In this document: piece after piece, positions 7,893 to 27,385 of the stretch
Numbering within the stretch: the first letter of the stretch is position 1
How the letters are laid out: each line of letters opens with the position of its first letter
Origin: Trichlorobacter lovleyi SZ
Lineage (GTDB): Bacteria > Desulfobacterota > Desulfuromonadia > Geobacterales > Pseudopelobacteraceae
Length of the DNA: 32,000 nucleotides
Assembly: GCF_000020385.1 (NCBI RefSeq)
Contig: NC_010814.1
Coordinates: forward strand, 2,070,001 to 2,102,000
Direction: 5' to 3'
Translations under genes and position numbers: made by a program
Notes under the pieces: model-generated
The model's input: only the letters and a program-made list of their open reading frames with translations
Told to the model about the DNA's origin: nothing
Database searches by the model: none

Positions 7893-7927
7893 GACAGTAG
7901 GAGATATACCTGAAAAAGACAGAGAAG

Positions 7928-9013: not shown

Positions 9014-9110
9014 CCTGTACAGCCATGTAGGGTCACTTCCCCACCAGGTGATAGTGTCTGATCAAATACCCCTATTCCCCTCATAAAGCTGTAGTCCATA
9101 TTGATAACTT

Positions 9111-11050: not shown

Positions 11051-11056
11051 AAGAAG

Positions 11057-11908: not shown

Positions 11909-13263
11909 CAGGCACGATTTCCCTGCTTGAATAGACTACCGCTCCATAGTGGCATCAGTAACAAGCTTTTGATCTGTAAACGAAAAATCGAACGTGTTGC
12001 TGGCGTAAAGGCATTCATTACAACATTGACTAGGCCATGGGCAACCAAACTAGCGATTGCGGCCCCCACCGGTCCGTAAGCAGGGATCAGGATAAGGTTC
12101 AAACTGATATTAACCAATGCACCACATATGGTCCGAAACAGTACGTAGCGTTGCAGATTTTCCGTCACAAACCACTGGTGGCTCGCCACACCGAGAAACA
12201 CAAACAAGGCGGACCAGATATGTAGTGCCAACACCATCCCCGCACCATGATATCGGTTACCGAACAGCAACGCAACAACCCAATCCGCACAAAACGTCAT
12301 GGGAATTGCCAAGGCAAGCGCCAGAATAACCATAATGGTATGGGTAAACTCCAATCGGGCAACATACTGGAGTTTACCGGCGTTTTTAGCTAAAACTACA
12401 CTGGGAAATAATGACGCCATAATCGCTATCGGGATAAAGTACCATGCTTCACTGAGCCGGAGAGCAGCAGAAAAAATACCAACTGCCTCTTCATTCAGCA
12501 GTTTACCCAGCATGATTTGATCCATCCGCATATATCCGGCCATGGCAAGTCCCGATACCATGAGTGGTGTACCGTCGTGAATCAGTCGATGCCACCGTTC
12601 TTTCTGGAACCGCCATCGAAACGAAGAACCGACATATCGAGAGTAAACCAACAGTAATGCGCCAGCAGTGAATAGGCCTTCAAACCACAACACCCAGATA
12701 AAAGCCATGAACGGTGCATGGGTAAGAATCAACCCTGCCTTGACCGTTGCTAAAACCAGAAATATCCCATTCTCTGCCCACACTGAATAACGTGATTGAA
12801 CCTGTGATTCAAACCAAAATTTAATAACTTCCGAGGCCTTAAATACGGAAACCGTGCCTAAAAGAGCAATCATGGCGACAAACCGCATGTCGTCACGTTG
12901 CACAATATATGCGGTTACTAGCGCACATAGCCAAGCGGCGACACCACCCATGACCTGGACAACGACAGCAGTTCCAAGAATGTGATATCGTTGTTCCGGC
13001 TCTTTAATCAGATCCCGTACAACAATGCTATTCATACCAAAGGTTGCGACCGCACTGAACAGAAAGGCAATAGCGACAACATAGTTTAATAAACCAAACT
13101 GTTCCGGCCCCAGATAGCGGGCCAGCCAGATGCTGATCACCATGCCGATCCCGCCTCTGATGAGGCTATCGGCACACATCCAGCCAATATTTGTGAATAC
13201 CTGTAATCGGTTTGATCTAGGAGAACCGGTGTGGTGGAAAATACTACGGAGAAAGGACCTCAC
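11908..13263 (-). CDS. Wzx-type polysaccharide flippase (MOP superfamily polysaccharide biosynthesis protein)
   Basis: 451 aa with about 12 predicted TM helices. The N-terminus ...IRGGIGMVISIWLARYLGPEQFGLLNYV is typical of O-unit flippases. GTG start overlapping the GT2 stop (GTGA). Confidence 0.8.
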   Translation of the reverse strand: MRSFLRSIFHHTGSPRSNRLQVFTNIGWMCADSLIRGGIGMVISIWLARYLGPEQFGLLNYVVAIAFLFSAVATFGMNSIVVRDLIKEPEQRYHILGTAVVVQVMGGVAAWLCALVTAYIVQRDDMRFVAMIALLGTVSVFKASEVIKFWFESQVQSRYSVWAENGIFLVLATVKAGLILTHAPFMAFIWVLWFEGLFTAGALLLVYSRYVGSSFRWRFQKERWHRLIHDGTPLMVSGLAMAGYMRMDQIMLGKLLNEEAVGIFSAALRLSEAWYFIPIAIMASLFPSVVLAKNAGKLQYVARLEFTHTIMVILALALAIPMTFCADWVVALLFGNRYHGAGMVLALHIWSALFVFLGVASHQWFVTENLQRYVLFRTICGALVNISLNLILIPAYGPVGAAIASLVAHGLVNVVMNAFTPATRSIFRLQIKSLLLMPLWSGSLFKQGNRA

Positions 13264-14042
13264 GTTCGTCGTCCAGCAGATAGTGGTACTACACCTGTTA
13301 CCAGCAGTACCGACCAGATCAGCATTTTGCCAAGATAATTAACCGTAGCCAATAGCGCAGAATAACCATGCTGCACAGCCGCCTTACGCACCTCCCGATA
13401 TCCTACGGTTGCCTGTTGACCACTCACCCCATCGGTTTCCATGATTGCCAAGACCTCCGGCAGGTAGCGTATAGTTACCCCGCGGGACATCCAGCGCAGG
13501 AACATCTCCGCATCCATAGCAATACGGTAGCCGGTATCGAACAGGCCATGTCGTTCATATACCACACGCCGGACAAAGGTGGCCGGATGGTTAAATAACA
13601 CGAGTCTCCATGGATACCACCAACGACCGGCTGGCTTCAGCCGTTTGATAGTTCGACCGTTTTTATGGAGCAGTACATCCCCATGCACTACATCCACCTC
13701 GGGGTGGTTGGCAAAATAAGAACGAACGATAGCTAACGTATTAAGAGCCAGTTGGTCATCAGCATTAAGTAAGGCAATAATGTCACCAGTAGCACGGCAA
13801 ATCCCTTTGTTAAATGCATCAGCAATACCTTGATCCGGCTCGCTAACAAGCAGATCAATACAGGGACATGCTTCTATCACTGTCAATGTGGTATCGGTAG
13901 ACCCCCCATCGATAATCAGATATTCAACCCCGTCATCCTTTTGGGCCTCTACACTGGTAATCGTGCGACCGATAGTTGCATCGCTGTTTTTACAGACCGT
14001 GATCAGTGATAGACTAGGAATATGGGCATGAGATACGGTCAT
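13260..14042 (-). CDS. glycosyltransferase family 2
   Basis: 260 aa. SLITVCKNSDATIGRTITSV..., YLIIDGGSTD and the LNADD (DxD-like) motif are typical of GT-A GT2 enzymes. Confidence 0.85.
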   Translation of the reverse strand: MTVSHAHIPSLSLITVCKNSDATIGRTITSVEAQKDDGVEYLIIDGGSTDTTLTVIEACPCIDLLVSEPDQGIADAFNKGICRATGDIIALLNADDQLALNTLAIVRSYFANHPEVDVVHGDVLLHKNGRTIKRLKPAGRWWYPWRLVLFNHPATFVRRVVYERHGLFDTGYRIAMDAEMFLRWMSRGVTIRYLPEVLAIMETDGVSGQQATVGYREVRKAAVQHGYSALLATVNYLGKMLIWSVLLVTGVVPLSAGRRT

Positions 14043-15094
14043 TATTGTTGAAACTCCGCCATTGACACTAATTTGCTGGCAAAGGAACTAAGCGTATGTT
14101 CTAAGGTATACCGCTGGGCAGTGGCAATACCACCGTTTATCAGTGACCTGATTATATGCTGATTCGTCAGCACAAGAATAGACTGATTCAGCAATGTGAC
14201 ATCATCATTAATCAGACTCACCATCGCGTTCTCACCGGAACGGGCATAGGGCACTGCTGAAGTAGTGATTACCGGACAGCCACACGCCATGGCCTCTAGA
14301 GGCATAAGCGGCAACCCCTCGTGACGAGATGGATAGAGAAACAGGTTCGCACTGCTCATGATCTGCCGCAGCCGGTGTTCATTGACGTAGCCTAAATCAC
14401 GATGATGCACTCCAGCAGGAAATATCCCCTGACAGGCTTCACCGACGGTCCATATTTCCAAAGTCTCTGTGCCTTTTCTGTTCAGCAGATTTGTAACAAT
14501 AGTTACCGCCACATCGAAGCCTTTACGCGCATCTGAGCGCGATAACAACAAAATTGCCTGACGATCCTCCTTATACCGAATCAGTTCCTGATCAGGGTCA
14601 GGATAAAAGCTTGCCGCATCAATGCCATTTTCAACGACCTCTGTTCGGACATGAAAACGACGCAGAAAGGTATCGGCAAGGTGCTGAGCTACTGCAATCG
14701 TTCTAATTCCCATGACTGTTAGTCCGATACTGTACAATAGCCTGATAAACAGTCGGGGAAATAGAGAGGAATAATATGATTCATCGTAATCCTGGGCATA
14801 ATAAATCGTGTGCTTCCGGTTGCGTACAGCTAACAGGCAGGCCAGTGGAATGATATCTGCAATGATTAGTTGGTGGGGGAAATGGGTGACAAGCGCACGT
14901 AACAAGGTTGATGCCGTGTTCGAGGATGGCAACCGTTGCAGAATCACACGACTATCAATGTGAAAAACCGAATTGATCTGAGCAGCCATTATCGTCACTT
15001 GATGCCCCTCGGCAACAAGGTGATTAGCGTGGGCGATAATCATCCGGTCTCCACCACGGCTCAAGAGCGTGTGACGGTAAAACAGGATATTCAC
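14042..15094 (-). CDS. glycosyltransferase family 4 (GT-B)
   Basis: 350 aa. Has the C-terminal signature HEGLPLMPLEAMACGCPVITT. Confidence 0.85.
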   Translation of the reverse strand: MNILFYRHTLLSRGGDRMIIAHANHLVAEGHQVTIMAAQINSVFHIDSRVILQRLPSSNTASTLLRALVTHFPHQLIIADIIPLACLLAVRNRKHTIYYAQDYDESYYSSLFPRLFIRLLYSIGLTVMGIRTIAVAQHLADTFLRRFHVRTEVVENGIDAASFYPDPDQELIRYKEDRQAILLLSRSDARKGFDVAVTIVTNLLNRKGTETLEIWTVGEACQGIFPAGVHHRDLGYVNEHRLRQIMSSANLFLYPSRHEGLPLMPLEAMACGCPVITTSAVPYARSGENAMVSLINDDVTLLNQSILVLTNQHIIRSLINGGIATAQRYTLEHTLSSFASKLVSMAEFQQ

Positions 15095-15097
15095 GTA

Positions 15098-15955
15098 CTA
15101 TCCTCCATATATCCCCCATCCCACCATAAGCCCCCACCCTGCCCCCACAACCAGCAACCAGGGATCACGCAATAAGGATTCTGTCGGATCACCACTTAGT
15201 CCCGACTTGACTCTCAATATATAGCGTAGCAGCCCAAAGCAACAGAGTGGGACAGTATACAGTAGAAAATTGTGGGATAAAGTGTACATGGTGTAGGTGA
15301 CCAGTACAGCACTGCCGGTCATAAACAGTACGCCGTCAAGAAAGCCGTCAGGATAATGCGTCAACACTTTACGATGGGATGCGGCACCAGTATCGCCGAG
15401 AGTCTGTTTTTCAGAGAGACGTTTTCCAGCACTCAAAAACAGTGAAAGCAAAAGTACAGACAAAAACAGCCATTCAGAAACACGGATGTTGAAGACAGCC
15501 CCTCCTGCCATGAGGCGGAACAAAAAACCGGTGGCAATACAAAACAGATCAACTACCGGTATATTTTTTAGACAGCATGAATAGGCAAAAGATACTGTCA
15601 GGTATGCCAGTACGAGTAAAGTAAAGGTTGTACCGACAAATACAGCTGAAATAACAGCACATGCTGTCAGTGAAACGGACAGTATCTGTGCAGTTTTGAC
15701 AGAGGCTGTGCCTGACACCAAGGGACGGGAGGACTTCCGTGGATGATTGGAGTCAGCTTCACGGTCCAATAAGTCGTTGACTAGATATCCTGCACTCGAA
15801 GCCAGAGAGAACAGAATAAAAGGGATGGTTCCCTTGACAACCATCCCTTGAGTTAGCAGGGTACCACCAAGAAACGGAGGAAAGAACAGCATCAGATTTT
15901 TCAACCACTGATGTGGTCGAAGTAGCTGAAGGATGGCGGCAACACGTTTCATCAA
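15098..15955 (-). CDS. UbiA-family prenyltransferase resembling decaprenyl-phosphate phosphoribosyltransferase (DPPR synthase)
   Basis: 285 aa, polytopic. The N-terminus LLRPHQWLKNLMLFFPPFLGG and NDLLDREADSNHPRKSSRPLVSG match the DPPR-synthase branch of the UbiA superfamily. First gene of the operon. Confidence 0.7.
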   Translation of the reverse strand: MMKRVAAILQLLRPHQWLKNLMLFFPPFLGGTLLTQGMVVKGTIPFILFSLASSAGYLVNDLLDREADSNHPRKSSRPLVSGTASVKTAQILSVSLTACAVISAVFVGTTFTLLVLAYLTVSFAYSCCLKNIPVVDLFCIATGFLFRLMAGGAVFNIRVSEWLFLSVLLLSLFLSAGKRLSEKQTLGDTGAASHRKVLTHYPDGFLDGVLFMTGSAVLVTYTMYTLSHNFLLYTVPLCCFGLLRYILRVKSGLSGDPTESLLRDPWLLVVGAGWGLMVGWGIYGG

Positions 15956-15989
15956 GGTTTGTTCAATGCCTCTCTAAACTGTCGGCAAA

Positions 15990-16313
15990 CTACCATTCAT
16001 CATCCTGCTCAGAGCGGTCTTCATCATCAAAGACGCTGTATCCATCATCGTCTTCATCAATCTCTTCAGGGTACAGCTCATCATCATCCTGTTCTTCAGC
16101 TCCACCTAAATGCCATTTAGGGCGGTCCTCCGGTTCTGCAGCCGCCTCAAAACGGGCCAACATTTCAGGATCAGTGCAAAACCGGTCATCTTTAAAGTGG
16201 CATTTTTCAAGTTCACAGAGATCGAACAGTTGGATCTCACTACAGAGCCTGAGAGGCAGTTCCTGAGGCTCTTCATTTTTATTAACCAACTCTTCTAAGC
16301 TACTCACGCACAT
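15990..16313 (-). CDS. small, highly acidic Cys-containing protein of unknown function
   Basis: The ORF reads (M)CVSSLEELVNKNEE...LCSEIQLFDLCELEKCHFKDDRFCTD...EEQDDDELYPEEIDEDDDGYSVFDDEDRSEQDDEW. The start is either ATG 16313 or GTG 16307. The GTG overlaps the fbp TGA as GTGA and lies 7 nt after GGAG. The track's 16358 start would overlap fbp by 55 nt. Confidence 0.6.
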   Translation of the reverse strand: MCVSSLEELVNKNEEPQELPLRLCSEIQLFDLCELEKCHFKDDRFCTDPEMLARFEAAAEPEDRPKWHLGGAEEQDDDELYPEEIDEDDDGYSVFDDEDRSEQDDEW

Positions 16314-17251
16314 GCTCCGTTCAAAAACTCTGTGGCCTTTGCCACGTCTTCTTTGCAACCAATATAAATTGGTGCCCGCTGGTCAAGCCCCTCTGGTTGC
16401 ATGTCAAGGATCGGCATGCAACCGTTGGTGGCAGCACCGCCAGCCTGTTCAATCAGATAGGCCATAGGATTCAGTTCAAACAGAAGCCGCAGTTTTCCGT
16501 TGGGGGAATCAGTAAGGGCCGGGTACATGAAGATGCCTTTGCCCTTCATCAAAATCTGGTTGATGTCAGGCACAAATCCGCCTGAATAGCGCAGTTTTGA
16601 GCCTTTATCTTCCAGGTAACGGATGTAGGCCTCATTCTCAGGGGTATATTTCTTACGCAGACCACCTGGCGAGTAGATGTCTCCCGAGGGGTTCATCTGA
16701 ACCTTTTCACGGGTCAGAGTAAATTCCATCAGATGGTTCATGGTGAATTCGTAGACCCCCTTGCCCACCGAGTAGACCATGGAGACCCGCGGACCGTACA
16801 GAATATACATGGCTCCGACCATGTTGCGTCCCGGCTGCAGCAGGTTATCGCCCTGATAAATGCCGACAATGGTCCCTACGGCCAGGTTTACATCCACCAG
16901 TGAAGAACCATCCAGCGGATCATAAGCTACGGAGAACATCCCCAGAGGATTACTGGTTACCTGAAAAATTTCATCCATCTCTTCTGAGGCTATATTACAG
17001 ACAACCCCTGAATACATCAGTCTTTTTCGTAAAATACGGTCAGACAGGACATCCAGAGCCAACTGTTCTTCACCGTACAGGTTGGAGGTACCGGCGACCC
17101 CGAGATCTCCGGTACGAACCGCGTTGATCACATATTTACTGGCCTCGGCAATTTCGCACAACAGATGTACCAAGTTACCACTGATATTCTGCTCACGCAG
17201 ATGGCGACGAAAGTCGGTTTGAAATTTGGTGCTTCCGGGCTCCTTGCCCAT
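16304..17251 (-). CDS. fbp: fructose-1,6-bisphosphatase, class 1
   Basis: 315 aa. Has the ...DPLDGSSLVDVN... metal site and GGLRKKYTPENEAYI...LRYSGGFVPD, typical of class 1 FBPase. Confidence 0.92.
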   Translation of the reverse strand: MGKEPGSTKFQTDFRRHLREQNISGNLVHLLCEIAEASKYVINAVRTGDLGVAGTSNLYGEEQLALDVLSDRILRKRLMYSGVVCNIASEEMDEIFQVTSNPLGMFSVAYDPLDGSSLVDVNLAVGTIVGIYQGDNLLQPGRNMVGAMYILYGPRVSMVYSVGKGVYEFTMNHLMEFTLTREKVQMNPSGDIYSPGGLRKKYTPENEAYIRYLEDKGSKLRYSGGFVPDINQILMKGKGIFMYPALTDSPNGKLRLLFELNPMAYLIEQAGGAATNGCMPILDMQPEGLDQRAPIYIGCKEDVAKATEFLNGACA

Positions 17252-17292
17252 AAGACAGTCCTCCTGAACAGGTAGTGTGCTAGATTAAAATA

Positions 17293-17321
17293 TAGATAGT
17301 ACAGGATATGTCTGATTTCAA
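17293..17321 (-). promoter_or_regulatory. candidate sigma-70 promoter for fbp
   Basis: On the minus strand: TTGAAA (17321..17316), 17-nt spacer, TATCTA (17298..17293). It lies about 40 nt upstream of the fbp ATG. Confidence 0.35.
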
Positions 17322-17327
17322 GGGGAA

Positions 17328-18140
17328 TCAGGCAACAGCCAGCAGAGAGGCAAGATATGTTATCACCCCATCAAGGACAAAAATTGAAAAGAGACTGGTA
17401 ATGACAGCCCTGGTTGCAGCCTGGGGTATTTCCGTGGCGCTGGTGCCGACAGACATTCCGGCATTACAGCAGATCAGCGGGATAATCAGGCCAAATGCAG
17501 CTGCTTTTGCCATCAAGACAACCACTTCTCGTATTCCAAGTGAGGCAACGATCCCCTGAATAAACTGATCGTACGATATATGGTGGCCAAACGAGACAAT
17601 CAGAAAGCCACCTACAAAAGAAGTCAGCACAAAATAAATGGTAAGGAGCATGACGGAGGTGGCAGCACCTATGACGCGAGGTAACAACAGATACCGTTCG
17701 GGATCGATTCCCAATCGTTCCAACGCAGCAATTTCACCATTGATTTTCATAGCCCCCAGTTCGGCTGCAATGGCAGTGCCACTGCGAGCAATAACAATCA
17801 TTGCAGTTAAAAGAGGACCTAACTCAAGAAACACAACCCAGACCAGCACTTTGCCGATTAATGAGCCGTTTCCACCGCCAACCAGGCCAATCACCTGACT
17901 GACAATAACGGTTCCGAGAATAACAGCAACCAGCACAATGATTTTTGCAGCCTCAAGGCCGGTAAAATAGAGCTGCTTCAGTAATACCATGCGAATGGCA
18001 GGATTCCCAAGGGAGGGAGGACTGATCAATGATACCAGTGACTGCAGGATGAGTCGTGTAATGGTGACAAAAAACTGCCCCCGACGGAGTACAAAGGCCC
18101 CGATGCGTTCCGGGAACAGTACATTCGTCTCAGATGTCAT
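17328..18140 (-). CDS. MlaE-family ABC transporter permease (orphan: no ATPase or MlaD partner nearby)
   Basis: The multi-TM protein with ...ITRLILQSLVS...LYFTGLEAAKIIVLVAVILGTV...GPLLTAMIVIARSGTAIAAELGAMKINGEIAALE... is typical of MlaE/Ttg2B. The start is ambiguous (ATG 18140, 18152 or 18197). I chose 18140, which has GGATGGA upstream and an 11-nt overlap with the preceding gene. Confidence 0.75.
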   Translation of the reverse strand: MTSETNVLFPERIGAFVLRRGQFFVTITRLILQSLVSLISPPSLGNPAIRMVLLKQLYFTGLEAAKIIVLVAVILGTVIVSQVIGLVGGGNGSLIGKVLVWVVFLELGPLLTAMIVIARSGTAIAAELGAMKINGEIAALERLGIDPERYLLLPRVIGAATSVMLLTIYFVLTSFVGGFLIVSFGHHISYDQFIQGIVASLGIREVVVLMAKAAAFGLIIPLICCNAGMSVGTSATEIPQAATRAVITSLFSIFVLDGVITYLASLLAVA

Positions 18141-18918
18141 AGATGGTTCCATCCCGCAGCAGTTCAACCTGGCGGATTCCCATCTGCGCAATTTCATCCC
18201 GGATCAGATCGTAATACTGTGGTTTGGGATGGGTAATCAGAATCCGTTTGGGGAGTTCTGCGATCTTGGCCAACTCCTTTTCAAGCAATGAACAGCACAG
18301 ATGCTGTGTCAAAAGCGCCAACGCTTCCTGATTGTTGGGGAATGACACCTCAACTATCAGGACATCGGCACCTGATGCATAGCGCCAGATTTCATCAGTC
18401 GGGCCGGTGTCACCGGTGTAGACCAGGCGGCGTCCGGCATGTTCAACGCAATAGCCAACTGCCGGAACCGTGTGATGCACCGGTACTGCGGTCAGTGAGT
18501 AGCCGTCAATAGTGCGGCGTTCAGGAGTCAAATTGCCAAGTACAACCGGTTCAGACGGTTGAATGACATTAAAGCGCAACACCGGTTCTTCCGGCGTGGG
18601 CAGACAGGTGAAATCAGGCCAGATCAACCCATTAAACAAATGGGTACGCAGGGCTTCGATAACTGATAACGGTGCATAGACATCAACCAGATGGCGCAGA
18701 TTTTTGACGATTATATTGTCAGCCAGTGCCGGGATACCGCGGATATGATCCAGGTGGGCATGGGTAATAAAGATATTTCTGATTGACCATTGTTCTTCTT
18801 CAGTCAAAACAGAACCGATAGTGCCCGCATCAAGCAACAGTGAGTCATCAATCAGAAAGGCCGGCGGCCTGAAATCAGGAAATTCTGCCCCGGCACTTCC
18901 CAGAATACGCAGCTTCAT
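18130..18918 (-). CDS. MBL-fold metallo-hydrolase resembling class II 3',5'-cyclic-nucleotide phosphodiesterase
   Basis: 262 aa. MKLRILGSAG...FLIDDSLLLDAGT...ITHAHLDHIRGIP. The HxHLDH core matches the class II PDE / beta-lactamase-fold signature. Confidence 0.65.
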   Translation of the reverse strand: MKLRILGSAGAEFPDFRPPAFLIDDSLLLDAGTIGSVLTEEEQWSIRNIFITHAHLDHIRGIPALADNIIVKNLRHLVDVYAPLSVIEALRTHLFNGLIWPDFTCLPTPEEPVLRFNVIQPSEPVVLGNLTPERRTIDGYSLTAVPVHHTVPAVGYCVEHAGRRLVYTGDTGPTDEIWRYASGADVLIVEVSFPNNQEALALLTQHLCCSLLEKELAKIAELPKRILITHPKPQYYDLIRDEIAQMGIRQVELLRDGTIYDI

Positions 18919-18951
18919 CGCTTCTCCTCCCTGTTCACAGCTGATTCCGCA

Positions 18952-19656
18952 CTACTGAAACTGTTCTTTTAATTGCCGGATGATTTCAACCTGACGGCCG
19001 TAAATATACTGTGAAATGACTTTGTCTGCATTCTTATCGGGCTCAAATCGAAAGGTATGCACAAACTCACCTTCCTTTTCTGCAGATTTCACCAGCGTTG
19101 AAGGCAAGATCAAGTCTGAACCGTTGACTGAGAGTTGCAGAATGCCGTTTTCCGGGATACCCGCCGGTGCTGACTGTTGGTTATGAATTGCAACCCCGGA
19201 AACAGAAATATCATCAGCTCGACCGGACAGCGTTTGAGTGTCAGCCGTGTAGGCGGCCGGAACAAAACCATCAATTTTTACGCGAACTGCACCACGTCTT
19301 TCGGCACGAATTGAGGCATAAGCAAAACGTCCCAGCACCGCAAAACTGTTCTTTACATTGACATATTCAACAAAACAATGGACTCCCAAGCCTTGTGGAA
19401 AAGACGAACTGGTCAGCAAAGCCTGTTTTTGCAGGCCGAGGACTACCGATTGCGCCTGGTGTGCCGTAACTTCGATACAGTCGGCGTCGATTGAATCGAT
19501 TTTTGCAGAATAGCTGATCGGAACCTCATGATAGTAGTTCAATAATTTTAGATCGTTTTTTAGACGTCCTGCTTTCATCTCGCGCAGGGTGTGCAGGATC
19601 GCCTCCAAATCCTGTTTACCGTCTTTTATGCTTACGATCTGGAACGTTTCTCGCAC
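18952..19656 (-). CDS. PilZ domain protein (putative c-di-GMP receptor) with an N-terminal YcgR-like domain
   Basis: 234 aa. Both canonical c-di-GMP contact motifs are present: RxxxR (RAERRGAVR) and DxSxxG (DISVSGVAI). Confidence 0.75.
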   Translation of the reverse strand: MRETFQIVSIKDGKQDLEAILHTLREMKAGRLKNDLKLLNYYHEVPISYSAKIDSIDADCIEVTAHQAQSVVLGLQKQALLTSSSFPQGLGVHCFVEYVNVKNSFAVLGRFAYASIRAERRGAVRVKIDGFVPAAYTADTQTLSGRADDISVSGVAIHNQQSAPAGIPENGILQLSVNGSDLILPSTLVKSAEKEGEFVHTFRFEPDKNADKVISQYIYGRQVEIIRQLKEQFQ

Positions 19657-19674
19657 AATCCCCCCATACCAAAA

Positions 19675-20490
19675 TTACCTGAACGGCTGACAAACAGGGC
19701 AAAAATGGGTTCCCCTCTGACCAAGCCGTTCTTTAACAATCAAAGTACCACAGACAATGCATGGCCTGCCCCCCCTGCCATATACCGCAACCGGAAATGA
19801 GCCGGCCTCAAAGACACCATCAATATTGGCACCTTTGGCAGCCACAGCCTGAACCAGCACCCCATGCAGGGCATGATAAAAACGCTCTGCCTCTGATGAT
19901 GTCAGGTCTGCAGATAGCCTGGCAGGATGTAATTGAGCCCGGAATAGCGTTTCGTCAGCATAGATATTACCGACTCCTGCCACAAACCCCTGATCCAACA
20001 GTAACGGTTTTAACTGCCTCCGTGCACCATGCAAGCGATCTAAAAATGTCTTTTGCTGAATCAAGAGCGCATCAGGCCCCAGCTTACTGGTAACTTCTGA
20101 CGGATCATCAACCAGCCAGACTCGCCCAAAGGCACGGGGGTCATCAAAGCGAAGCGCCAAACCATGATCAAGCAGCAAGGCAAACCTGGTATGACGTTCT
20201 GCAATCTCCTGTTCCGGCACCAGAAACAGGCGACCGGTCATACGCAGATGCAGGGCCAGCCAGACACGTTTTGAAGCAGAGTGGCCTTGAAATCCAAAGA
20301 ACAGATACTTACCATGCCGGTAAACATCGCAACAGGTTGATCCTGTGACTGTTTGTACAACAGCGGAGGCCTCTCCATCAATCACCGAGTTGCGTAGAAT
20401 ACGTACCTCACGGACCAGCCTTCCTATTAATGACGGGTTACTGGTGGTCAGGCATTGCAGAACGCTTTCAACTTCCGGCAATTCAGGCAT
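19675..20490 (-). CDS. mutM: formamidopyrimidine-DNA glycosylase
   Basis: 271 aa. N-terminal MPELPEVE catalytic motif, an H2TH region and a C-terminal zinc finger CIVCG...CPVCQ. Confidence 0.93.
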   Translation of the reverse strand: MPELPEVESVLQCLTTSNPSLIGRLVREVRILRNSVIDGEASAVVQTVTGSTCCDVYRHGKYLFFGFQGHSASKRVWLALHLRMTGRLFLVPEQEIAERHTRFALLLDHGLALRFDDPRAFGRVWLVDDPSEVTSKLGPDALLIQQKTFLDRLHGARRQLKPLLLDQGFVAGVGNIYADETLFRAQLHPARLSADLTSSEAERFYHALHGVLVQAVAAKGANIDGVFEAGSFPVAVYGRGGRPCIVCGTLIVKERLGQRGTHFCPVCQPFR

Positions 20491-22580
20491 TATTTACTCT
20501 TGGCCGTATACACACCATCCCAGTCTGCTGGAGGCGGCGTTTCAAGATACTCTGCGCAACGATTACTGTAGAGACGTGAAGGACCATCGGAATAGTCAGC
20601 AACTAACCGGTTAAAGATCTGCTGTGCCGTAACAAACTGCTTTGCACGGTATTTTTCAAGCCCTTCTTCAAAGTGTGGCAATAGTTCAAGATTTGTAATC
20701 ATCAGCTCATACATGACAATCGGTAAATGTTTGCCTTTGACCCGTACGCGGTCAACTTCGCGGAATATAAATCGTCCGTCTGGCACCTGATTACGGGTAT
20801 CCTCACTGACCAGAATATGGGAACCATAATATTTGTTCAGCCCCTCCAGGCGGGAGGCCAGGTTGACCGAATCTCCGATGGCGGTGTAGTCAAAACGGAT
20901 ATCTGCCCCCATGTTACCTACAACCGCTGGTCCTGTGTTGATGCCGACTCCAATATCCAGAGTATGCATGCCACGTTCTGCAAACCCCTCATTCAAACGT
21001 TTTAACTCTTCAAGCATTCGGACAGCAGCAGCGCAGGCATGTTCTGCATGACCGGGAACATCCAGTGGCGCATTAAAGATTGCCATAACCGCATCGCCGA
21101 TAAATTTATCCAGCGTCCCCCTCTCTTCCAGAACAATCCTGGTCATGGGTGAAAGATATTCATTTAAAAGCGTTACAAGTTCAGGAGGTGTCAGACTTTC
21201 TGAAACCGTTGTAAAGCCACGGATATCTGAAAATAAAATTGAAATTTCACGTTGTTCCCCCCCCAGCACCAGCTTGTCAGGGTTCTTTTCAATTTCTCGT
21301 ACCAGATCAGGTGAAACATAGTTGGAAAAGGCCTTCTTCAGCTGTCGCCCCTTCTTTTCAACTACCAGGTTCCGCCAGGACTCGCTGCCCAGATAGGTCA
21401 GGCCGATACCAAGCATCGGGTAAATGACCGTCATATCGCGTAATCCCTGGGTAAATGCCAGATAATTGATGAGCGAAAACAGACCGGCTGTTCCAATAAA
21501 GGCAGCCAGACCGGCAAATGTGCCGGGTACGAAAGCCAGCACAATCCCCAGCAGGATCGGTAACAGCAGGATACAGAGCATTTCCTGCATTTGCGTAATC
21601 CCATCGTACTTCAGGAAACGACGTTCAAGGGCATTGGCTGCGACTGTGGCATGCAGCTCAACACCTGGCTGGGTTGCGTCAAACGGTGTCGGACGGATGT
21701 CGTAGATACCGATCTCAGTAGCGCCTACAAAGGCAATGGCGCCTTTCAGCTCATCAGGTTTCAGTCGTTTTTTGAGTACATCAGCTGCAGATACGGTTCT
21801 GAAGGAGTGAGCCGGTCCGTAATAATTTAACGACATAGTGCCGTCTTCACGGGAGGGAATGCGCAGGGAGCCGATCTGCAGACCATCAATGCCGTAGGAC
21901 TTCACCTCCAGCATGATATCACTGTTCAGATAGTGACGCAGCGCCTTCATGGCCAGTGAAGGATAGATATCGCCATTGTAAAGCAACAGCAGGATTGAAC
22001 GCCGGTATAATCCGTCACCATCAGGTCTGGCATTAAAAAAGCCGAAATCCAGTGCCCCGGCACCCAGTTGCGGCAGATTAACATCCAGATTGGCATATTC
22101 AGTCAGCGGAATGGATTGCACCCCTTCAGCAACTCTCATCAGCTTGACAGTTGCCCGCTCCATCTGGGCGATGGCTGCCGGATCAGCAGACTGTTCCTCT
22201 TCACGAAAAAAATAGCCCATGACCACATTGCCTGCCTTAGCAATAGAACTGGCCAGGGCAGCATCTGCGGCCGGGTTTTGGGGCTCTGAAAAGACAATAT
22301 CAAGTGCAGTGACTTTGACACCGTAGCTTGCCAGATTTTGGATCAAACGTCCGGTTACTTCACGGGACCAGGGCCAGCGACCGATCTCCTTGATGCTGGC
22401 ATGATCAATCGCCACCACCACAACATCCTTGTCCGGCTTAATCGGCCCCCGGACACGAAAGCGGGCATCCTTCATCCGGTAATCAAGCTGCTGCAACGCC
22501 TGGGGGGCCTGCCGATAGGCCGCAAACGTAAGGAGAGCGGCAATCAAACCAAAGACAACGAAAGCAAGGCGTTTTTTCAT
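20490..22580 (-). CDS. CHASE2 sensor domain - class III adenylate/guanylate cyclase
   Basis: 696 aa. N-terminal TM helix, a large extracytoplasmic region (DVVVVAIDHASIKEIGRWPWSR...), a TM bundle, then the cyclase core ISILFSDIRGFTTVSE...KFIGDAVMAIFNAP...GINTGPAVVGNMG...DYTAIGDSVNLASRLE. Confidence 0.88.
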   Translation of the reverse strand: MKKRLAFVVFGLIAALLTFAAYRQAPQALQQLDYRMKDARFRVRGPIKPDKDVVVVAIDHASIKEIGRWPWSREVTGRLIQNLASYGVKVTALDIVFSEPQNPAADAALASSIAKAGNVVMGYFFREEEQSADPAAIAQMERATVKLMRVAEGVQSIPLTEYANLDVNLPQLGAGALDFGFFNARPDGDGLYRRSILLLLYNGDIYPSLAMKALRHYLNSDIMLEVKSYGIDGLQIGSLRIPSREDGTMSLNYYGPAHSFRTVSAADVLKKRLKPDELKGAIAFVGATEIGIYDIRPTPFDATQPGVELHATVAANALERRFLKYDGITQMQEMLCILLLPILLGIVLAFVPGTFAGLAAFIGTAGLFSLINYLAFTQGLRDMTVIYPMLGIGLTYLGSESWRNLVVEKKGRQLKKAFSNYVSPDLVREIEKNPDKLVLGGEQREISILFSDIRGFTTVSESLTPPELVTLLNEYLSPMTRIVLEERGTLDKFIGDAVMAIFNAPLDVPGHAEHACAAAVRMLEELKRLNEGFAERGMHTLDIGVGINTGPAVVGNMGADIRFDYTAIGDSVNLASRLEGLNKYYGSHILVSEDTRNQVPDGRFIFREVDRVRVKGKHLPIVMYELMITNLELLPHFEEGLEKYRAKQFVTAQQIFNRLVADYSDGPSRLYSNRCAEYLETPPPADWDGVYTAKSK

Positions 22581-22590
22581 ACCGTTATGC

Positions 22591-23637
22591 CTACTTACCG
22601 ATACCGTTCAACAGGGTTTCGGCATTGCTGCGTTGTTTTCCCTGGGGATACAGCCTGAGATACTGCTCGAAGCGGAGTTTGGCCTGATCGTTAAAGCCCA
22701 TTTCAGCAAGGGTCTGGGCAGCATTAAACAGGGCAAATTCCGCCTGGGGCAGATTGGGGTACTCTTCCAGCACCAACAGATATTCTGCCAGGGCAAGTTC
22801 CGGGTTGGACAGGAAGCGGGCATACACTGCGCCGCGTTCCATATGGGCATCAGCCCGCACAGACTCCACCTTGGTCAGGTCCAGCGCAATCTGGAACACA
22901 TTCAAGGCGTCCTGATACTTGCCGCTGTCTGCCAGATAGTGACCGTGATTGATGTTCCAGCGAGCACAAATATCAACAATTTTTCCTGAGTCAGTCCACT
23001 CTTTGGGGGGCTCGGCAGCGGTTACACCATCGAATATCCCTTTTGCCTCAGCCAGCGGTGTACCCTGATCAACCTTAACCGGTTCTGCCGGGGGCAAGCC
23101 GCGGGTGTTCTGAACATAGGTGGATGAAGTAAGCGGCTGTTGACCTGATTTTCCATCGCCTGAAACAGATACGGTCCCTTCATTGCCAAAAAATACGTTG
23201 GCCTGCCCCTGAGACAGCATGAGGAACTCGGTACCCTTGATTCCGGCAACTGCCGTGCCGCTCTTCACCGTCATACCACTCTGCTTACCGCCGAACTTTA
23301 CCACTGAAGCCCGCAACTTGCCTTCAGCCAGATTAAAGGTACCTTCCCGCTTGTTTTTGGTCAGAAGGAAGCCGGTTACTTCAAATTCGGTGTTATTGGC
23401 AAGGGTGAAGGTACTCTTGTCATTCAGGGTCAGTTCAACCCAGCCTTTGGGACCGGTTTTGATCCAGGTACCGGTAGCAACAGCTGTGCCCTTTGCTAAC
23501 GGAGTATAGGGTACGCCGGCCTTAACCCGCATGTAGGCCTGGCCTGTAAGCCCGGTGATCTTTCCCACCGGCGCGGCAAAAGCCAGTACCGGCATGAGAA
23601 CGATGCCAACAAGCAGGATAAACAATTGTTTTTTCAT
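22591..23637 (-). CDS. exported FecR-domain protein with C-terminal TPR repeats
   Basis: 348 aa. Signal peptide; FecR-like beta region (GKITGLTGQAYMRV...TGTWIKTGPKGWVELTLNDKSTFTLANNTEF); C-terminal TPR-like helices. It starts 10 nt before the cyclase gene. Confidence 0.75.
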   Translation of the reverse strand: MKKQLFILLVGIVLMPVLAFAAPVGKITGLTGQAYMRVKAGVPYTPLAKGTAVATGTWIKTGPKGWVELTLNDKSTFTLANNTEFEVTGFLLTKNKREGTFNLAEGKLRASVVKFGGKQSGMTVKSGTAVAGIKGTEFLMLSQGQANVFFGNEGTVSVSGDGKSGQQPLTSSTYVQNTRGLPPAEPVKVDQGTPLAEAKGIFDGVTAAEPPKEWTDSGKIVDICARWNINHGHYLADSGKYQDALNVFQIALDLTKVESVRADAHMERGAVYARFLSNPELALAEYLLVLEEYPNLPQAEFALFNAAQTLAEMGFNDQAKLRFEQYLRLYPQGKQRSNAETLLNGIGK

Positions 23638-23845
23638 GATACACCTCCAGAAAAGATATCAGGCGAAGTTGCATTGGATGGGAGTAATCAGGCTGTTTTC
23701 CGCCGATTGTACCAGTATTTCAGCATGAGTCAAACGTTGACGCAGAAAATAACCTGTATCATTTTCTTGAGTATCAGCCGGTATCTGGTATTCTTGCACC
23801 GTTAGTCAGTATCAGTAAGCCCCAATCCCGGTTTGGAGTACAATC

Positions 23846-26161
23846 ATGGACCAATCTCCAACGTCTGATATGAACCTGCTCAAACAACAGCTTGAGTACC
23901 GCAAACGGCTGATGGACAAGATTAACGAAATCCATTCAGCTGATAATCTCAACACTATCCTGCTTCATATTAAAGACAGTATTGCAGCCCTGTTTACTGC
24001 CCAGCGTATCACGATCTATCTGGCTGATGCAAAACGCAATCTTTTGATATCAAAGGTTTTGTCCGGCACGGAGGTCAAGCAGATCGTGGTACCGATCTCT
24101 GATGCCAGTCTTGCTGGATACTGTGCCCTGTCCGGGACGGTACTGAATATCAAAGACGCCTATAATGATCATGAACTGAAGATGATCAGCTCCAATCTCA
24201 AGTTTGACCACTCGTGGGATCAAAAAACCGGCTTTGTGACCAAACAGGTTCTCTGTGTGCCGATGAAGTTTCAGCGCACGCTGATCGGTGTGATTCAAAT
24301 CATCAATAAACAGAACGGTACCCCCTTTGACGACACAGATATCACCTATGCCCTGGAACTGGGGACATCCCTTTCAATTGCCATTCACAATATCTACCGC
24401 TTGCAGGTGACCACCAAGATCATTCGCCAGCGTAGCCGCTACAACTATCTGCTGGATCGAAATATTCTGGATGACAAATCAATTGAAAAGGCGTCCGTCC
24501 ACCCGGATGTTGCCAAATTCGGTCTCGATGCTGTCCTGATGCGCGAATACAAAGTTCCCAGGGAAGAGATGGCCAAAGCCCTGTCGCTTTTCTTTGGCAC
24601 CGAGTTCATTAAATACGAACCTGCAGCTCCCGCCATGGAAGAAGAACTGCTAAAGCGGATCAGGCCGGATCGTTTGATGAAAGAGTGGTGGGTACCGTAC
24701 AAGGTCGAGAACGGTGTACTGTATATCATCATGGATGACCCGACTGATCTGGGACGTCAGGACATGATCAAGTTTATCTACCCGGAATACAAACGGATCA
24801 GCTACGTGGGCGCCTTCCGGGATGATATTCAAAGCTACATCGGACTGTTCTATAACCGTGGAGCCTCTCTGGGGTCAGGAGGCAGCATAGATGAGTTGAT
24901 CAATAAGCTGGACGCAACTGATGAGCCGGAGATCGAGCAGGAATCATCAAAGGTCTCTGAACAGGACAGCGTGATTGTCCAACTGGTAAACAAGATCATC
25001 ATTGATGCAGTCCAGGGCAAAGTATCCGATATTCACATTGAACCGTATCCCGGTAAAGAGGATGTCATTGTACGTACCAGGATTGATGGGCGCTGCAAGG
25101 TTTACCAGCGCATACCATACAAATATAAATACGCCATCCCTTCGCGGATCAAGATCATGTGCGGCCTTGACATTTCGGAACGACGCAAACCTCAGGACGG
25201 CAAGATTGACTTCAAAAAGTTCGGACCGCTCGATGTTGAGTTGCGGGTAGCCACCGTACCTACAGCCGGTCAGCTTGAAGATGTGGTCATGCGGGTTTTG
25301 GCTTCAGGTGAGGCCGCCCTGCCCTATGACAAACTGGGGCTCACTGAGCGCAACAGCAAGGTCTTGATGGAATGCATCAACCAGCCCTATGGCCTGGTAT
25401 TGGTTGTCGGCCCCACCGGCTCCGGAAAGACCACCACCCTGCACTCCGCTATTTCCGTTATCAATACCCCTGAAACCAAGATCTGGACTGCAGAAGATCC
25501 GGTGGAGATCACGCAACGGGGCCTACGTCAGGTACAGGTACATCCCAAGATCGGTTTTACCTTTGCCGCGGCCCTGCGTTCCTTCCTGCGGGCCGACCCT
25601 GATGTAATCATGGTGGGTGAGATGCGGGATCAGGAAACCGCCGAGATCGGTATTGAATCATCCTTGACCGGCCACCTGGTCTTTTCCACCCTGCACACCA
25701 ACTCGGCACCGGAGACGGTTACCCGTCTGCTGGATATGGAACTGGATCCATTCTCGTTCTCGGACGCCATTCTCTGTATTCTTGCCCAGCGTCTCTGCCG
25801 CCGGCTCTGTGACTGCAAGCAGGAGTACCAGCCGGATCGCAAAGAACTTGAAGATATCATAATGGAATATGGGGTGGAGGCGTTCAAGAAGACAGGCATT
25901 AACCCTGCCGATATCAGGCTTTGCAAGGCAACCGGTTGCCCTAAATGCGGTGATTCAGGCTACAAAGGCCGTCTGGGAATCCATGAGCTGCTACAGGGTA
26001 CCGATGAGATGAAGACCCTGATCAAGCGTAAATCAGAAATTGAAGCAATCCGCCATCAGGCTATCAATGATGGCATGACCACCCTGAAACAGGATGGAAT
26101 TCTTAAATGTTTCAAAGGGCTGACTGATCTGAAAGAGGTCAGAAAAGTCTGCATCAAATAA
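23846..26161 (+). CDS. GspE/PilB-family secretion ATPase with N-terminal GAF-like and T2SSE_N domains
   Basis: 771 aa. Walker A GPTGSGKTT. The tetracysteine region is CRRLCDC...CPKCGDSGYKGR. The ATPase core is IRTRIDG...RKPQDGKI...DPDVIMVGEMRD...GHLVFSTLHTN. Residues about 20-185 look GAF-like (ITIYLAD...GYCALSGTVLNIKDAY...VLCVPM...LIGVIQIINK). Confidence 0.85.
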   Translation: MDQSPTSDMNLLKQQLEYRKRLMDKINEIHSADNLNTILLHIKDSIAALFTAQRITIYLADAKRNLLISKVLSGTEVKQIVVPISDASLAGYCALSGTVLNIKDAYNDHELKMISSNLKFDHSWDQKTGFVTKQVLCVPMKFQRTLIGVIQIINKQNGTPFDDTDITYALELGTSLSIAIHNIYRLQVTTKIIRQRSRYNYLLDRNILDDKSIEKASVHPDVAKFGLDAVLMREYKVPREEMAKALSLFFGTEFIKYEPAAPAMEEELLKRIRPDRLMKEWWVPYKVENGVLYIIMDDPTDLGRQDMIKFIYPEYKRISYVGAFRDDIQSYIGLFYNRGASLGSGGSIDELINKLDATDEPEIEQESSKVSEQDSVIVQLVNKIIIDAVQGKVSDIHIEPYPGKEDVIVRTRIDGRCKVYQRIPYKYKYAIPSRIKIMCGLDISERRKPQDGKIDFKKFGPLDVELRVATVPTAGQLEDVVMRVLASGEAALPYDKLGLTERNSKVLMECINQPYGLVLVVGPTGSGKTTTLHSAISVINTPETKIWTAEDPVEITQRGLRQVQVHPKIGFTFAAALRSFLRADPDVIMVGEMRDQETAEIGIESSLTGHLVFSTLHTNSAPETVTRLLDMELDPFSFSDAILCILAQRLCRRLCDCKQEYQPDRKELEDIIMEYGVEAFKKTGINPADIRLCKATGCPKCGDSGYKGRLGIHELLQGTDEMKTLIKRKSEIEAIRHQAINDGMTTLKQDGILKCFKGLTDLKEVRKVCIK

Positions 26162-26347: not shown

Positions 26348-27385
26348 ATGGACAATCCAGGTAAAGCCCGGACCGGCATCTCATATACCGACCAGCTCCT
26401 GTTGGAAAAATGCAGGTCAATTGAGCTACTTAGCAGAGATCTCTACTACTGTTTCGCAGATACATATGCCGATTCCCCTGAGGCAGATTACCTATGGCGT
26501 AAAACTGCGCGCGAAGAACAAAACCATGCCGATCAGTTTAGCTTGGCCTTGAAATTACATAAAGGCCTTCGTCTCAGCACCGGTATCAGCCTTGAAAAAG
26601 CAGATCGACTGATTGAACAACTCACAACCGGTATTGAAAAGGTAACTAATACCCCCCTGCCTTTGATTGAGGCACTGGCCTTTGCTGTAAAGCTTGAGCA
26701 TTTTTTGACGGAACTCCACCTTTCCTGTATGGCTGAGTTCACTGACAAATCGTTTTCAGATCTGTTCAAGGCAATGATGTCGAGCGATCAGGATCATGTC
26801 GCCTCAATTGAAGCCCTTTATACAAAATTGACTACGGCTACCCGGACCGATTCTTTGATTACAACCAAAGAGCAAGTACAACCTGCGCCACCCACTCGCA
26901 ATACTCAATCAACACTTGAACCTTACCAGAACAAGATACTTGAATTATTCAAGGAACAGGAAATGTTAATGGCATCGATCTATCAGAAACTTGCCCAACT
27001 TTATCCTGAACATGCAGATAGTTACTTAAAACTTGTGGCTGAAGAGATGGAACATGCCGGTTGGATTGAACAGCTTCAGACAGCCTGTCAGGCAGGCATT
27101 GCCTGTTTTGGCGAAGGTAAAACACGAAGCTATACTATTAGTGGGATGATCTCATACATGCAGGATTTTTATAAACGGCTTGAAACCGGACAACTTACCG
27201 AATTACAGGCTCTAACCGCAGTGGTTGATTTTGAACAATCCTTGATTGAACGGAATATTTTTCAACGGTTTTGCGGAGATTCTCCTGACGTTGAAAAGAC
27301 GTTAAGAATGCTTGAAAAAACACAAAAGATACATTCCGGTAATATTTCAGCTTTATTTCAACACGTTCGGTCCCCTGCTGTCTGA
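26348..27385 (+). CDS. tandem ferritin-like (rubrerythrin/diiron four-helix-bundle-like) domain protein
   Basis: 345 aa. There are two repeats, each with an E...ExxH...E...(E/D/Q)xxH pattern: IELLSRDLY / EEQNH / KLEHF / DQDH, then EQEML / EEMEH / FEQSL / QKIH. Confidence 0.65.
   Translation: MDNPGKARTGISYTDQLLLEKCRSIELLSRDLYYCFADTYADSPEADYLWRKTAREEQNHADQFSLALKLHKGLRLSTGISLEKADRLIEQLTTGIEKVTNTPLPLIEALAFAVKLEHFLTELHLSCMAEFTDKSFSDLFKAMMSSDQDHVASIEALYTKLTTATRTDSLITTKEQVQPAPPTRNTQSTLEPYQNKILELFKEQEMLMASIYQKLAQLYPEHADSYLKLVAEEMEHAGWIEQLQTACQAGIACFGEGKTRSYTISGMISYMQDFYKRLETGQLTELQALTAVVDFEQSLIERNIFQRFCGDSPDVEKTLRMLEKTQKIHSGNISALFQHVRSPAV

Follow-up and report, generated by a model that had tools for sequence, protein, structure and literature searches.

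A probable envelope-sensing cAMP module with passenger genes in a six-gene cluster of Trichlorobacter lovleyi SZ

All adenylate cyclases of the Campylobacterota carry a CHASE2 domain, and most of these CHASE2 cyclases were found, in a study by comparative genomics only, to cluster with a cyclic AMP (cAMP) phosphodiesterase, a FecR-domain protein and a tetratricopeptide repeat (TPR) protein (Mo et al. 2022, mBio, PMC9239204). This cluster shows signs of horizontal transfer, and a spread between phyla has been inferred for it (PMC9239204). Proteins of the FecR(-LysM) type are encoded directly 5' of CHASE2 histidine kinases in Burkholderiales and in Pseudomonas aeruginosa, where PA4035-PA4036 form the “BiofilmReg” pair (PMC5192318), and the CHASE2 cyclases of Sinorhizobium meliloti perceive a plant signal via an accessory envelope protein and act via the CRP-type regulator Clr (PMC13001267). 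Here a stretch of 32,000 nucleotides (nt) from Trichlorobacter lovleyi SZ (contig NC_010814.1, positions 2,070,001 to 2,102,000; hereafter the window) was analysed, in which six minus-strand open reading frames (ORFs) packed into positions 17328-23637 encode, in the order of transcription, a FecR-TPR protein, a CHASE2 cyclase, MutM, a PilZ protein, a metallo-beta-lactamase (MBL)-fold protein and an MlaE permease. The cluster is predicted to be a further cAMP module of this known kind, distinguished by the fusion of FecR and TPR in one partner protein and by its passenger genes. Its core, the FecR-TPR protein, the cyclase and the MBL phosphodiesterase, probably constitutes a widespread envelope-sensing cAMP module, the rest being passengers or neighbours. 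Homologues of the PilZ protein and a scan of one genome per species also put the window in Trichlorobacter (Geobacterales), with Trichlorobacter thiogenes ATCC BAA-34, which shares the gene order, as the closest isolate. Related loci, numbered with an L below (L001 being that of T. thiogenes ATCC BAA-34), were searched with the window proteins by tblastn.

The cyclase gene (20490-22580, minus strand) encodes 696 amino acids (aa) with Pfam matches to CHASE2 (PF05226, 6.7e-63, residues 15-343) and Guanylate_cyc (PF00211, 2e-25). Hydrophobic/transmembrane segments at residues 4-22, 334-352 and 358-376 flank CHASE2, giving the layout of a CHASE2 membrane sensor, with a transmembrane segment, a periplasmic CHASE2 domain, further transmembrane segments and a cytoplasmic cyclase domain. 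Adenine specificity is set by a Lys and a Thr, and guanylate cyclases carry Glu together with Cys or Gly. The cyclase domain was aligned to P. aeruginosa CyaB (3R5G), Spirulina CyaC (1WC1) and the guanylate cyclase Cya2 (2W01). The metal-binding Asp residues (in FSDIRGFT and IGD) were kept and aligned with those of CyaB and CyaC, as were the transition-state Asn and Arg (VNLASRLE) kept, and the substrate pair was Lys (DKFIGD) and Thr (DYTAIGD), as in CyaB and CyaC, with Glu and Gly at the two specificity positions of Cya2. Since the Lys/Thr pair and all catalytic residues are present, the protein is by sequence a class IIIb adenylate cyclase, predicted to convert ATP to cAMP rather than to produce cGMP, so that the inspection of substrate-specifying residues proposed in an earlier note on this DNA came down on the adenylate side.

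The first gene in order (22591-23637, minus strand, 348 aa) encodes a protein with a FecR match (6.1e-12, residues 59-148) followed by TPR_16/TPR_12 repeats (residues 231-331), the latter part weakly matching YbgF of the Tol-Pal system. Its N-terminus holds a signal-peptide-like hydrophobic segment (residues 6-24) ending in AFA followed by AP. Orthologues were encoded directly 5' of the cyclase in L001-L014, L085, L086, L090, L102 and L104, that is, in Geobacterales loci together with L102 and L104. The FecR-TPR protein is proposed to be a periplasmic co-sensor of the cyclase, which would contact its CHASE2 domain. To our knowledge, no ligand has been assigned to any CHASE2 domain, nor any role to a FecR-type partner. 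That FecR and CHASE2 form an extracytoplasmic sensing pair had been suggested from this one locus, and the pair proved recurrent both in the literature (PMC5192318, PMC9239204) and in L085, L086, L090, L102 and L104. In one outgroup contig, L085, a ParE/RelB toxin-antitoxin pair (6233-6701) encoded on the other strand separates the FecR gene from the cyclase, so the FecR-cyclase junction tolerates insertions.

The third member of the core, the MBL protein (18130-18918, minus strand, 262 aa), matched Pfam Lactamase_B_2 (4.5e-19) and, over residues 45-105 only, PDEase_II (4.9e-12); the score against PF02112 was 46 bits (cut-off 23.7), covering only positions 82-143 of the 340 in the profile. The motif H53-x-H55-x-D57-H58 was invariant across 27 homologues, and the protein combines the HxHxDH di-metal motif with the MBL fold, as class II phosphodiesterases do. 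Because sequence-only PDB searches gave weak, fragmentary matches for both the MBL and the PilZ proteins, fold searches were needed. With an AlphaFold2 (AF2) model (predicted local distance difference test, pLDDT, 80), the best PDB fold for the MBL protein was Bacillus subtilis YhfI (6KNS, E 4e-15, TM score 0.73-0.79), followed by RNase Z/ELAC, Apyc1 and yeast PDE1. YhfI prefers cAMP/cGMP (PMC9117128), and precomputed matches to PF23023 (Apyc1) were present on homologues of the MBL protein. Close homologues are named “3',5'-cyclic-nucleotide phosphodiesterase” by NCBI and “ribonuclease BN” by JGI. The RNase Z/BN models scored far below their cut-offs (TIGR02651, 78 bits against 293; TIGR02649, 32 bits against 564), and the protein is shorter, at 262 aa, than RNase Z chains of ~305-320 aa. 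The RNase Z equivalog models include the tRNA-binding exosite. On its modelled fold the protein falls into the class-II/YhfI/Apyc1/RNase Z branch and is proposed to be a cAMP phosphodiesterase, cAMP being its presumed substrate.

Two other roles were considered for this protein. The viral fold library gave only generic MBL hydrolases, with no informative Apyc1-type top match, and the gene, being chromosomal and syntenic, is not one of prophage anti-defence. A lipid phosphodiesterase role, as the pairing with MlaE might suggest, is unlikely, with no NAPE-PLD-type match in the Foldseek top 50.

The linkage between cyclase and phosphodiesterase was followed in metagenome contigs, which were scanned with an alignment of MBL proteins that had an outgroup sequence at its head; this gave 80 loci with MBL identities of 35-86% to the window. 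A CHASE2 cyclase lay at most 10 kb from the MBL gene in 28 of the 80, and among the 30 loci that show 2.5 kb or more on each side it was adjacent in nine, within 6.3 kb in seven and not seen in 14. At the same thresholds, 66 control windows of the same size from related genomes (1.14 Mb) gave two cyclase matches and no MBL match. Specifically, a full-length CHASE2 cyclase was encoded directly 5' of the MBL gene in L090, L100, L102, L104, L137, L142, L150, L151, L154, L156, L157, L163, L167 and L169, directly 3' of it in L107-L109, and a few genes away in L095, L099, L110, L119, L120, L123, L141, L153, L160 and L166. Both orders of the two genes occur, with identities as low as 37% for MBL and 30% for the cyclase, and Pfam confirmed CHASE2 and Guanylate_cyc in the distant loci L107, L120 and L169. 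Exact-sequence look-ups assigned some of the pairs to metagenome-assembled genomes (MAGs) that carry the labels Betaproteobacteria (L169), Nitrospirae (L107/L108) and Deltaproteobacteria (L119, L120). Since the pairing recurs in varied orders and orientations, it is not explained by simple synteny, and the tie between a cyclase as writer and an MBL protein as eraser, first drawn from the window, extends across phyla.

Genes of the cNMP_binding/CRP kind lay beside the module in L085, L087, L107, L109, L110, L119, L153, L156, L163, L166 and L169, some of the cNMP_binding proteins carrying a CRP-type helix-turn-helix; no cNMP_binding/CRP reader was found in the window. A GAF-HD_5 (HD-GYP-type) gene was also observed directly 5' of or near the MBL gene in L103, L106, L107, L108, L109, L156 and L166. 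This neighbour occurs in many loci with 40-50% MBL identity, often with cNMP_binding genes, and hints at a coupling of cAMP to cyclic di-GMP (c-di-GMP) in other lineages that is independent of PilZ.

A working scheme for the module can be proposed on the gene content, the catalytic and ligand motifs, the folds and the conservation or non-conservation of each adjacency as observed here. The FecR-TPR protein and the periplasmic CHASE2 domain would perceive an extracytoplasmic or envelope cue, and would thereby control the cyclase dimer in the cytoplasm that turns ATP into cAMP. The MBL phosphodiesterase, made from the same unit, would hydrolyse cAMP to 5'-AMP and so limit and reset the signal, and cAMP would be read by cNMP-binding or CRP-type proteins encoded elsewhere in the genome.

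Several observations weigh against this explanation. Of the 30 fully visible MBL loci, 14 are without a nearby cyclase, and in several Geobacterales loci (L081, L083, L088, L093 and L094) the MBL gene stands with mutM and a class 1 fructose-1,6-bisphosphatase (FBPase) gene and no cyclase, so the MBL enzyme may have a broader housekeeping role. The protein scored only 44 bits against NF041851, the NCBIfam equivalog “cyclic nucleotide-degrading phosphodiesterase” (cut-off 400), its PDEase_II match is confined to the metal-motif region, and the fold of the Campylobacterota phosphodiesterase is not named in PMC9239204. FecR was not found beside the cyclase in several distant loci, which instead had a TPR protein (L120, L123), an SH3-M48-FadL-like block (L107, L108, L120, L123) or, in L169, FHA and PP2C genes. 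Lastly, the position of PilZ was stable in 14 of 14 loci of the Trichlorobacter clade, and that of mutM in all but L013, which leaves room for a lineage-specific functional tie of PilZ and mutM to the module.

Concerning the block seen in place of FecR, an SH3 protein, an M48 peptidase and a FadL/TodX-like outer-membrane protein are encoded directly after the CHASE2 cyclase in Nitrospirae/Deltaproteobacteria MAG loci (L107, 6107-8662; L108, 13037-14881; L120, 3324-5999; L123, 7284-9959), and this recurrent block may supply envelope partners there instead of FecR.

The six genes taken together are a mosaic rather than a conserved unit, and the pieces assort separately. In the Trichlorobacter clade (L001-L014, PilZ identity at least 50%) the full order, GAF-ATPase(-) and then FecR-cyclase-MutM-PilZ-MBL-MlaE-FBPase, was present wherever the contig was long enough, and intergenic spacing was nearly identical in 13 related genomes. 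Only in this clade do mutM and PilZ stand between cyclase and phosphodiesterase, and even here L013 is without mutM and L012 has mutM-PilZ-FBPase without FecR, cyclase, MBL or MlaE. The outgroups, with MBL and cyclase orthologues of 65-77% identity, showed MutM-MBL-(MlaE)-FBPase and no cyclase in L081, L083 and L088, MBL-MlaE-ComEC in L089, and GAF-ATPase(-) followed by FecR-cyclase-MBL-FBPase in L086. In L085 a CRP gene adjoins FecR-(ParE/RelB)-cyclase, and L084, 35 kb away on the same contig, has MBL-MlaE-FBPase; in L087 a CRP gene lies 2 kb from the cyclase. The cyclase abuts the phosphodiesterase directly in outgroups L086, L090, L102 and L104, and in almost every Geobacterales locus FBPase comes after MBL or MlaE. 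Conservation of gene order, on which the earlier note had made its proposal depend, therefore holds within the Trichlorobacter clade and fails outside it, where the six genes are not kept together. Any co-transcription of the genes would owe more to chromosomal history than to a common pathway.

As to the layout itself, the ORF and DNA readings agreed on six genes on one strand with tiny gaps or overlaps, as first described, and the searches with hidden Markov models that were then run returned all six domain assignments (FecR/TPR, CHASE2/Guanylate_cyc, MutM, PilZ, MBL/PDEase_II and MlaE). Junction sizes range from -11 to +33 nt, being +10, -1 (TAATG), +18, +33 and -11 nt in transcription order, where the last value presupposes that mlaE starts at the ATG at 18140 and overlaps the MBL stop by 11 nt (mechanical ORF 17328-18197, likely gene 17328-18140, minus strand, 270 aa). 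Purine runs resembling Shine-Dalgarno sequences stand before the start codons of PilZ and MBL. A sigma70-like promoter candidate on the minus strand lies 5' of the FecR-TPR gene (23706-23733; TTGACT, a 16-nt spacer, TACAAT and a TG extension), identified by consensus match only, and it is the sole such minus-strand match in 15900-24100, so that the interior of the cluster holds none. The 17 terminator-like matches were all weak, with short stems, and lay within ORFs; internal terminators were rejected, the stems being taken as chance occurrences. Of the two ways in which the cluster might have been split into separate units, internal promoters thus had no candidate site on the coding strand and internal terminators only such weak matches. 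One feature on the minus strand at 18077-18098, a 7-bp GC-rich hairpin with a T-run, 32-53 nt past the MBL stop and within the 5' end of mlaE, is most likely due to chance, given the conserved mlaE start in outgroups, and could attenuate read-through into mlaE.

Downstream, a class 1 FBPase gene (16304-17251, minus strand; NF006783, 644 bits) begins 76 nt 3' of mlaE. This housekeeping gene is a neighbour by synteny, and because it lies on the same strand with no terminator between, it may be transcribed with the cluster as a seventh gene of the unit. All six genes, or seven with FBPase, probably share one predicted transcript that starts from a promoter 5' of the FecR-TPR gene. Across the full window, scans for Rfam families and tRNAs gave zero matches, which speaks against a riboswitch in the 208-nt divergent promoter region.

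A refinement of the favoured explanation would make the module a sensor of outer-membrane or lipid homeostasis, with FecR-TPR and CHASE2 responding to faults in envelope lipids or assembly and cAMP controlling the Mla-type transporter encoded beside the phosphodiesterase. The MlaE protein is a permease by its match to PF02405 (6.5e-58, 2-211 of 212 positions), and it scored 143 bits against TIGR00056, below the cut-off of 212. An MBL-MlaE pair was present in 15 loci, a full mlaE-mlaF-mlaD-TPR set lies 3' of the phosphodiesterase in L102 (6659-9983), partial sets lie 3' of it in L161 (mlaF and mlaD) and L100 (mlaF), and in L123 Mla genes lie 5' of the cyclase. Genes for LptD, LptF/G, an M48 peptidase and a FadL-like outer-membrane protein occur near the module in distant loci, and these neighbours together with Mla suggest an envelope or lipid theme, to which the weak likeness of the TPR part to YbgF would also fit. 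However, all 15 pairs have an MBL identity of ~50% or more, neither an ABC ATPase (ABC_tran/MlaF) nor MlaD, the cognate partners of an Mla transporter, was found in the 32-kb window, and much of the neighbourhood (trpA-accD-folC, FBPase, ComEC and HisS, with mutM likewise) is plain housekeeping synteny. This refinement is on balance unlikely, and mlaE in the window is an orphan, probably the remnant of a split mlaEFD operon of the kind seen in deeper-branching relatives. L093 has mlaF, mlaD and a TPR gene on the opposite strand, a few kb upstream.

The view that all six genes form one self-contained circuit, with cAMP coupled to c-di-GMP via PilZ and with MutM and MlaE as outputs or co-regulated genes, had been the proposal of the earlier note, and it turns on the two genes between cyclase and phosphodiesterase. 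The mutM/fpg gene (19675-20490, minus strand, 271 aa) encodes a protein that starts with MPELPEVE, including the catalytic Pro-Glu, ends with CIVCG...CPVCQ, and scored 221 bits against TIGR00577 (cut-off 203) with Pfam matches to Fapy_DNA_glyco, H2TH and zf-FPG, as expected of Fpg/MutM. The same gene stands 5' of MBL without any cyclase in L081, L083, L088, L091, L093 and L094, and it is a housekeeping copy that is a passenger in the cluster. The PilZ gene (18952-19656, minus strand, 234 aa, GTG start) encodes a protein matching Pfam PilZ at 7.5e-05 over residues 119-219 (23.4 bits, cut-off 22.5), with an N-terminal domain that escapes Pfam. Its motifs R120-R121-x3-R125 and D149-x-S151-x2-G154 were invariant or nearly so in 25 homologues, so that both the RxxxR and DxSxxG motifs of PilZ and the HxHLDH motif of MBL, picked out at the start, are present and conserved. 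Its AF2 model (pLDDT 88.5) matched MotI/DgrA, YcgR, MrkH and PP4397 over the full length, with two barrels (PilZN-type and PilZ), at a global TM score of only ~0.4, consistent with a different inter-domain angle. The modelled fold makes the protein a predicted c-di-GMP receptor of the YcgR/MotI type.

PilZ domains bind c-di-GMP. As a predicted receptor of a different messenger, the PilZ protein would not be the reader of the cyclase product, and the place of a reader in the circuit that it had been given is withdrawn, the cyclase residues indicating cAMP. The family was seen only in Geobacterales and Desulfuromonadales in homologue searches and in a scan of one genome per species, and as an anchor for conserved context it had to be rejected: none of the other five genes was present at 66 other loci of the family in other Geobacterales/Desulfuromonadales genera, outside the Trichlorobacter clade, where the neighbours were prfC, tatD, rubrerythrin, SLT and others. 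The gene is an insertion limited to the Trichlorobacter lineage, and the passenger status of mutM and PilZ follows from L012, L013, the outgroup loci L081, L083, L086 and L088-L094 and the unlinked PilZ genes elsewhere. The tight packing conserved in the Trichlorobacter-clade loci and the intact PilZ binding motifs do speak for a single circuit, and GAF-HD_5 genes, often 5' of MBL in distant lineages, make some cAMP/c-di-GMP coupling plausible in general. Yet PilZ and mutM are missing from the module in every lineage beyond one genus-level clade, L012 keeps mutM-PilZ after loss of cyclase and phosphodiesterase while L013 is without mutM, the relatives of PilZ stand in unrelated contexts, the messenger of PilZ is not that for which the cyclase is specified, and the window holds no diguanylate cyclase or c-di-GMP phosphodiesterase. 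One circuit of six genes is quite improbable: only three of them form a recurring module, with mutM, PilZ and mlaE as neighbours, and cross-talk from cAMP or cGMP to c-di-GMP via PilZ has its support in adjacency within one genus-level clade only.

Hardly probable, too, is a Trichlorobacter-specific envelope-sensing circuit in which the cAMP module, PilZ, MlaE and a divergent ATPase would let cAMP and c-di-GMP converge on a pilus/secretion ATPase and on lipid transport. The ATPase gene (23846-26161, plus strand) encodes a PilB/MshE-like protein with GAF, MshEN and T2SSE domains (Pfam), and it adjoins FecR, MutM or MBL in L001-L011, L083, L085, L086, L090, L095, L097 and L099, being the divergent neighbour of the module in all Geobacterales loci that have it. 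The sole hint across phyla is L169, a Betaproteobacteria MAG locus in which a full-length homologue of 46% identity (7584-9950) follows the cyclase, MBL and a cNMP_binding/Rhodanese protein. The ATPase may be an output of the module, with cAMP perhaps read by its GAF domain and c-di-GMP by PilZ and perhaps by MshEN. For the GAF domain, an NKFDE signature of cNMP binding was rejected, only the Asn being conserved among orthologues, and a canonical c-di-GMP motif in MshEN, read by eye, was not convincing.

That there is no functional module at all, the MBL protein being an RNase Z/BN-like or other housekeeping hydrolase and its proximity to the cyclase inherited synteny, is very improbable, for although the JGI name, the RNase Z structures among the top folds and the persistence of MBL beside mutM and FBPase in loci that lack the cyclase would all agree with it, the RNase Z equivalog scores are far under their cut-offs, the best fold is the cAMP/cGMP-preferring YhfI, CHASE2 cyclase and cNMP-binding genes recur next to MBL, variously ordered and oriented, in at least three further taxonomic groups, and the control windows were nearly empty.

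Elsewhere in the window, a small, very acidic ORF follows FBPase on the minus strand (15990-16358; mechanical ORF of 122 aa, overlapping the FBPase end), with no Pfam match and with homologues of 92-99 aa at the same place across Geobacterales genera. Further along the same strand, 7928-15955 holds genes for GT9, GT4 and GT2 glycosyltransferases, a methyltransferase, a Polysacc_synt flippase and UbiA-family proteins at a GC content of 0.44-0.48 against ~0.52, and is probably a variable lipopolysaccharide or exopolysaccharide island. On the plus strand, 26348-27385 encodes a 345-aa protein with a weak partial rubrerythrin match that looks like a duplicated ferritin-like fold and that close relatives also encode beside the GAF-ATPase (63% identity in L002).

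The set of FecR/TPR protein, CHASE2 adenylate cyclase and MBL protein reaches well past the Campylobacterota, as it is now seen in Geobacterales and in MAGs with the labels Betaproteobacteria, Nitrospirae and Deltaproteobacteria, and cNMP-binding/CRP genes often accompany it. It offers a compact, widespread cAMP system for study, in which Trichlorobacter and its Geobacter relatives are cultivable. The locus also carries a caution for operon-based prediction of function, in that tight co-directional packing can join a true module to unrelated housekeeping and lineage-specific genes.

Compared with described proteins and systems, the PilZ protein resembles YcgR, MotI (DgrA), MrkH and PP4397 in its two beta-barrels and its RRxxxR and DxSxxG motifs, with an identity of only 10-16%. 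The MBL protein shares with YhfI and phage Apyc1 (6KNS, 7U2R, 7T28; PMC9117128) the MBL fold, the HxHxDH di-zinc motif and a length of ~250 aa, but the identity is only 16-20% and the role predicted here is in chromosomal signalling, not anti-defence. The S. meliloti system of CyaD1/CyaD2/CyaK, NsrA and Clr (PMC13001267, PMC5498481) likewise combines CHASE2 class III cyclases with an envelope accessory protein; it differs in that NsrA is a beta-barrel outer-membrane protein and not a FecR-TPR protein, that no clustered MBL phosphodiesterase is known, and that it uses the CRP-type Clr, whereas the window has no CRP gene. BiofilmReg is similar in having an exported FecR-domain protein encoded immediately 5' of a CHASE2 membrane sensor, with a 10-bp gap in the window, and differs in its histidine kinase and response regulator output, in LysM in place of TPR and in having no phosphodiesterase. 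With the Campylobacterota cluster the window shares all four functions, which are encoded here on one strand within 5.5 kb; the differences are that FecR and TPR are fused here in one protein of 348 aa, that mutM and PilZ are interposed and that an orphan mlaE follows. The inferred spread of that cluster between phyla fits the presence of cyclase and MBL protein together in MAGs of Betaproteobacteria, Nitrospirae and Deltaproteobacteria, and the core of sensor, writer and eraser, to which functions are assigned on sequence grounds, is real, conserved and already noted in the literature.

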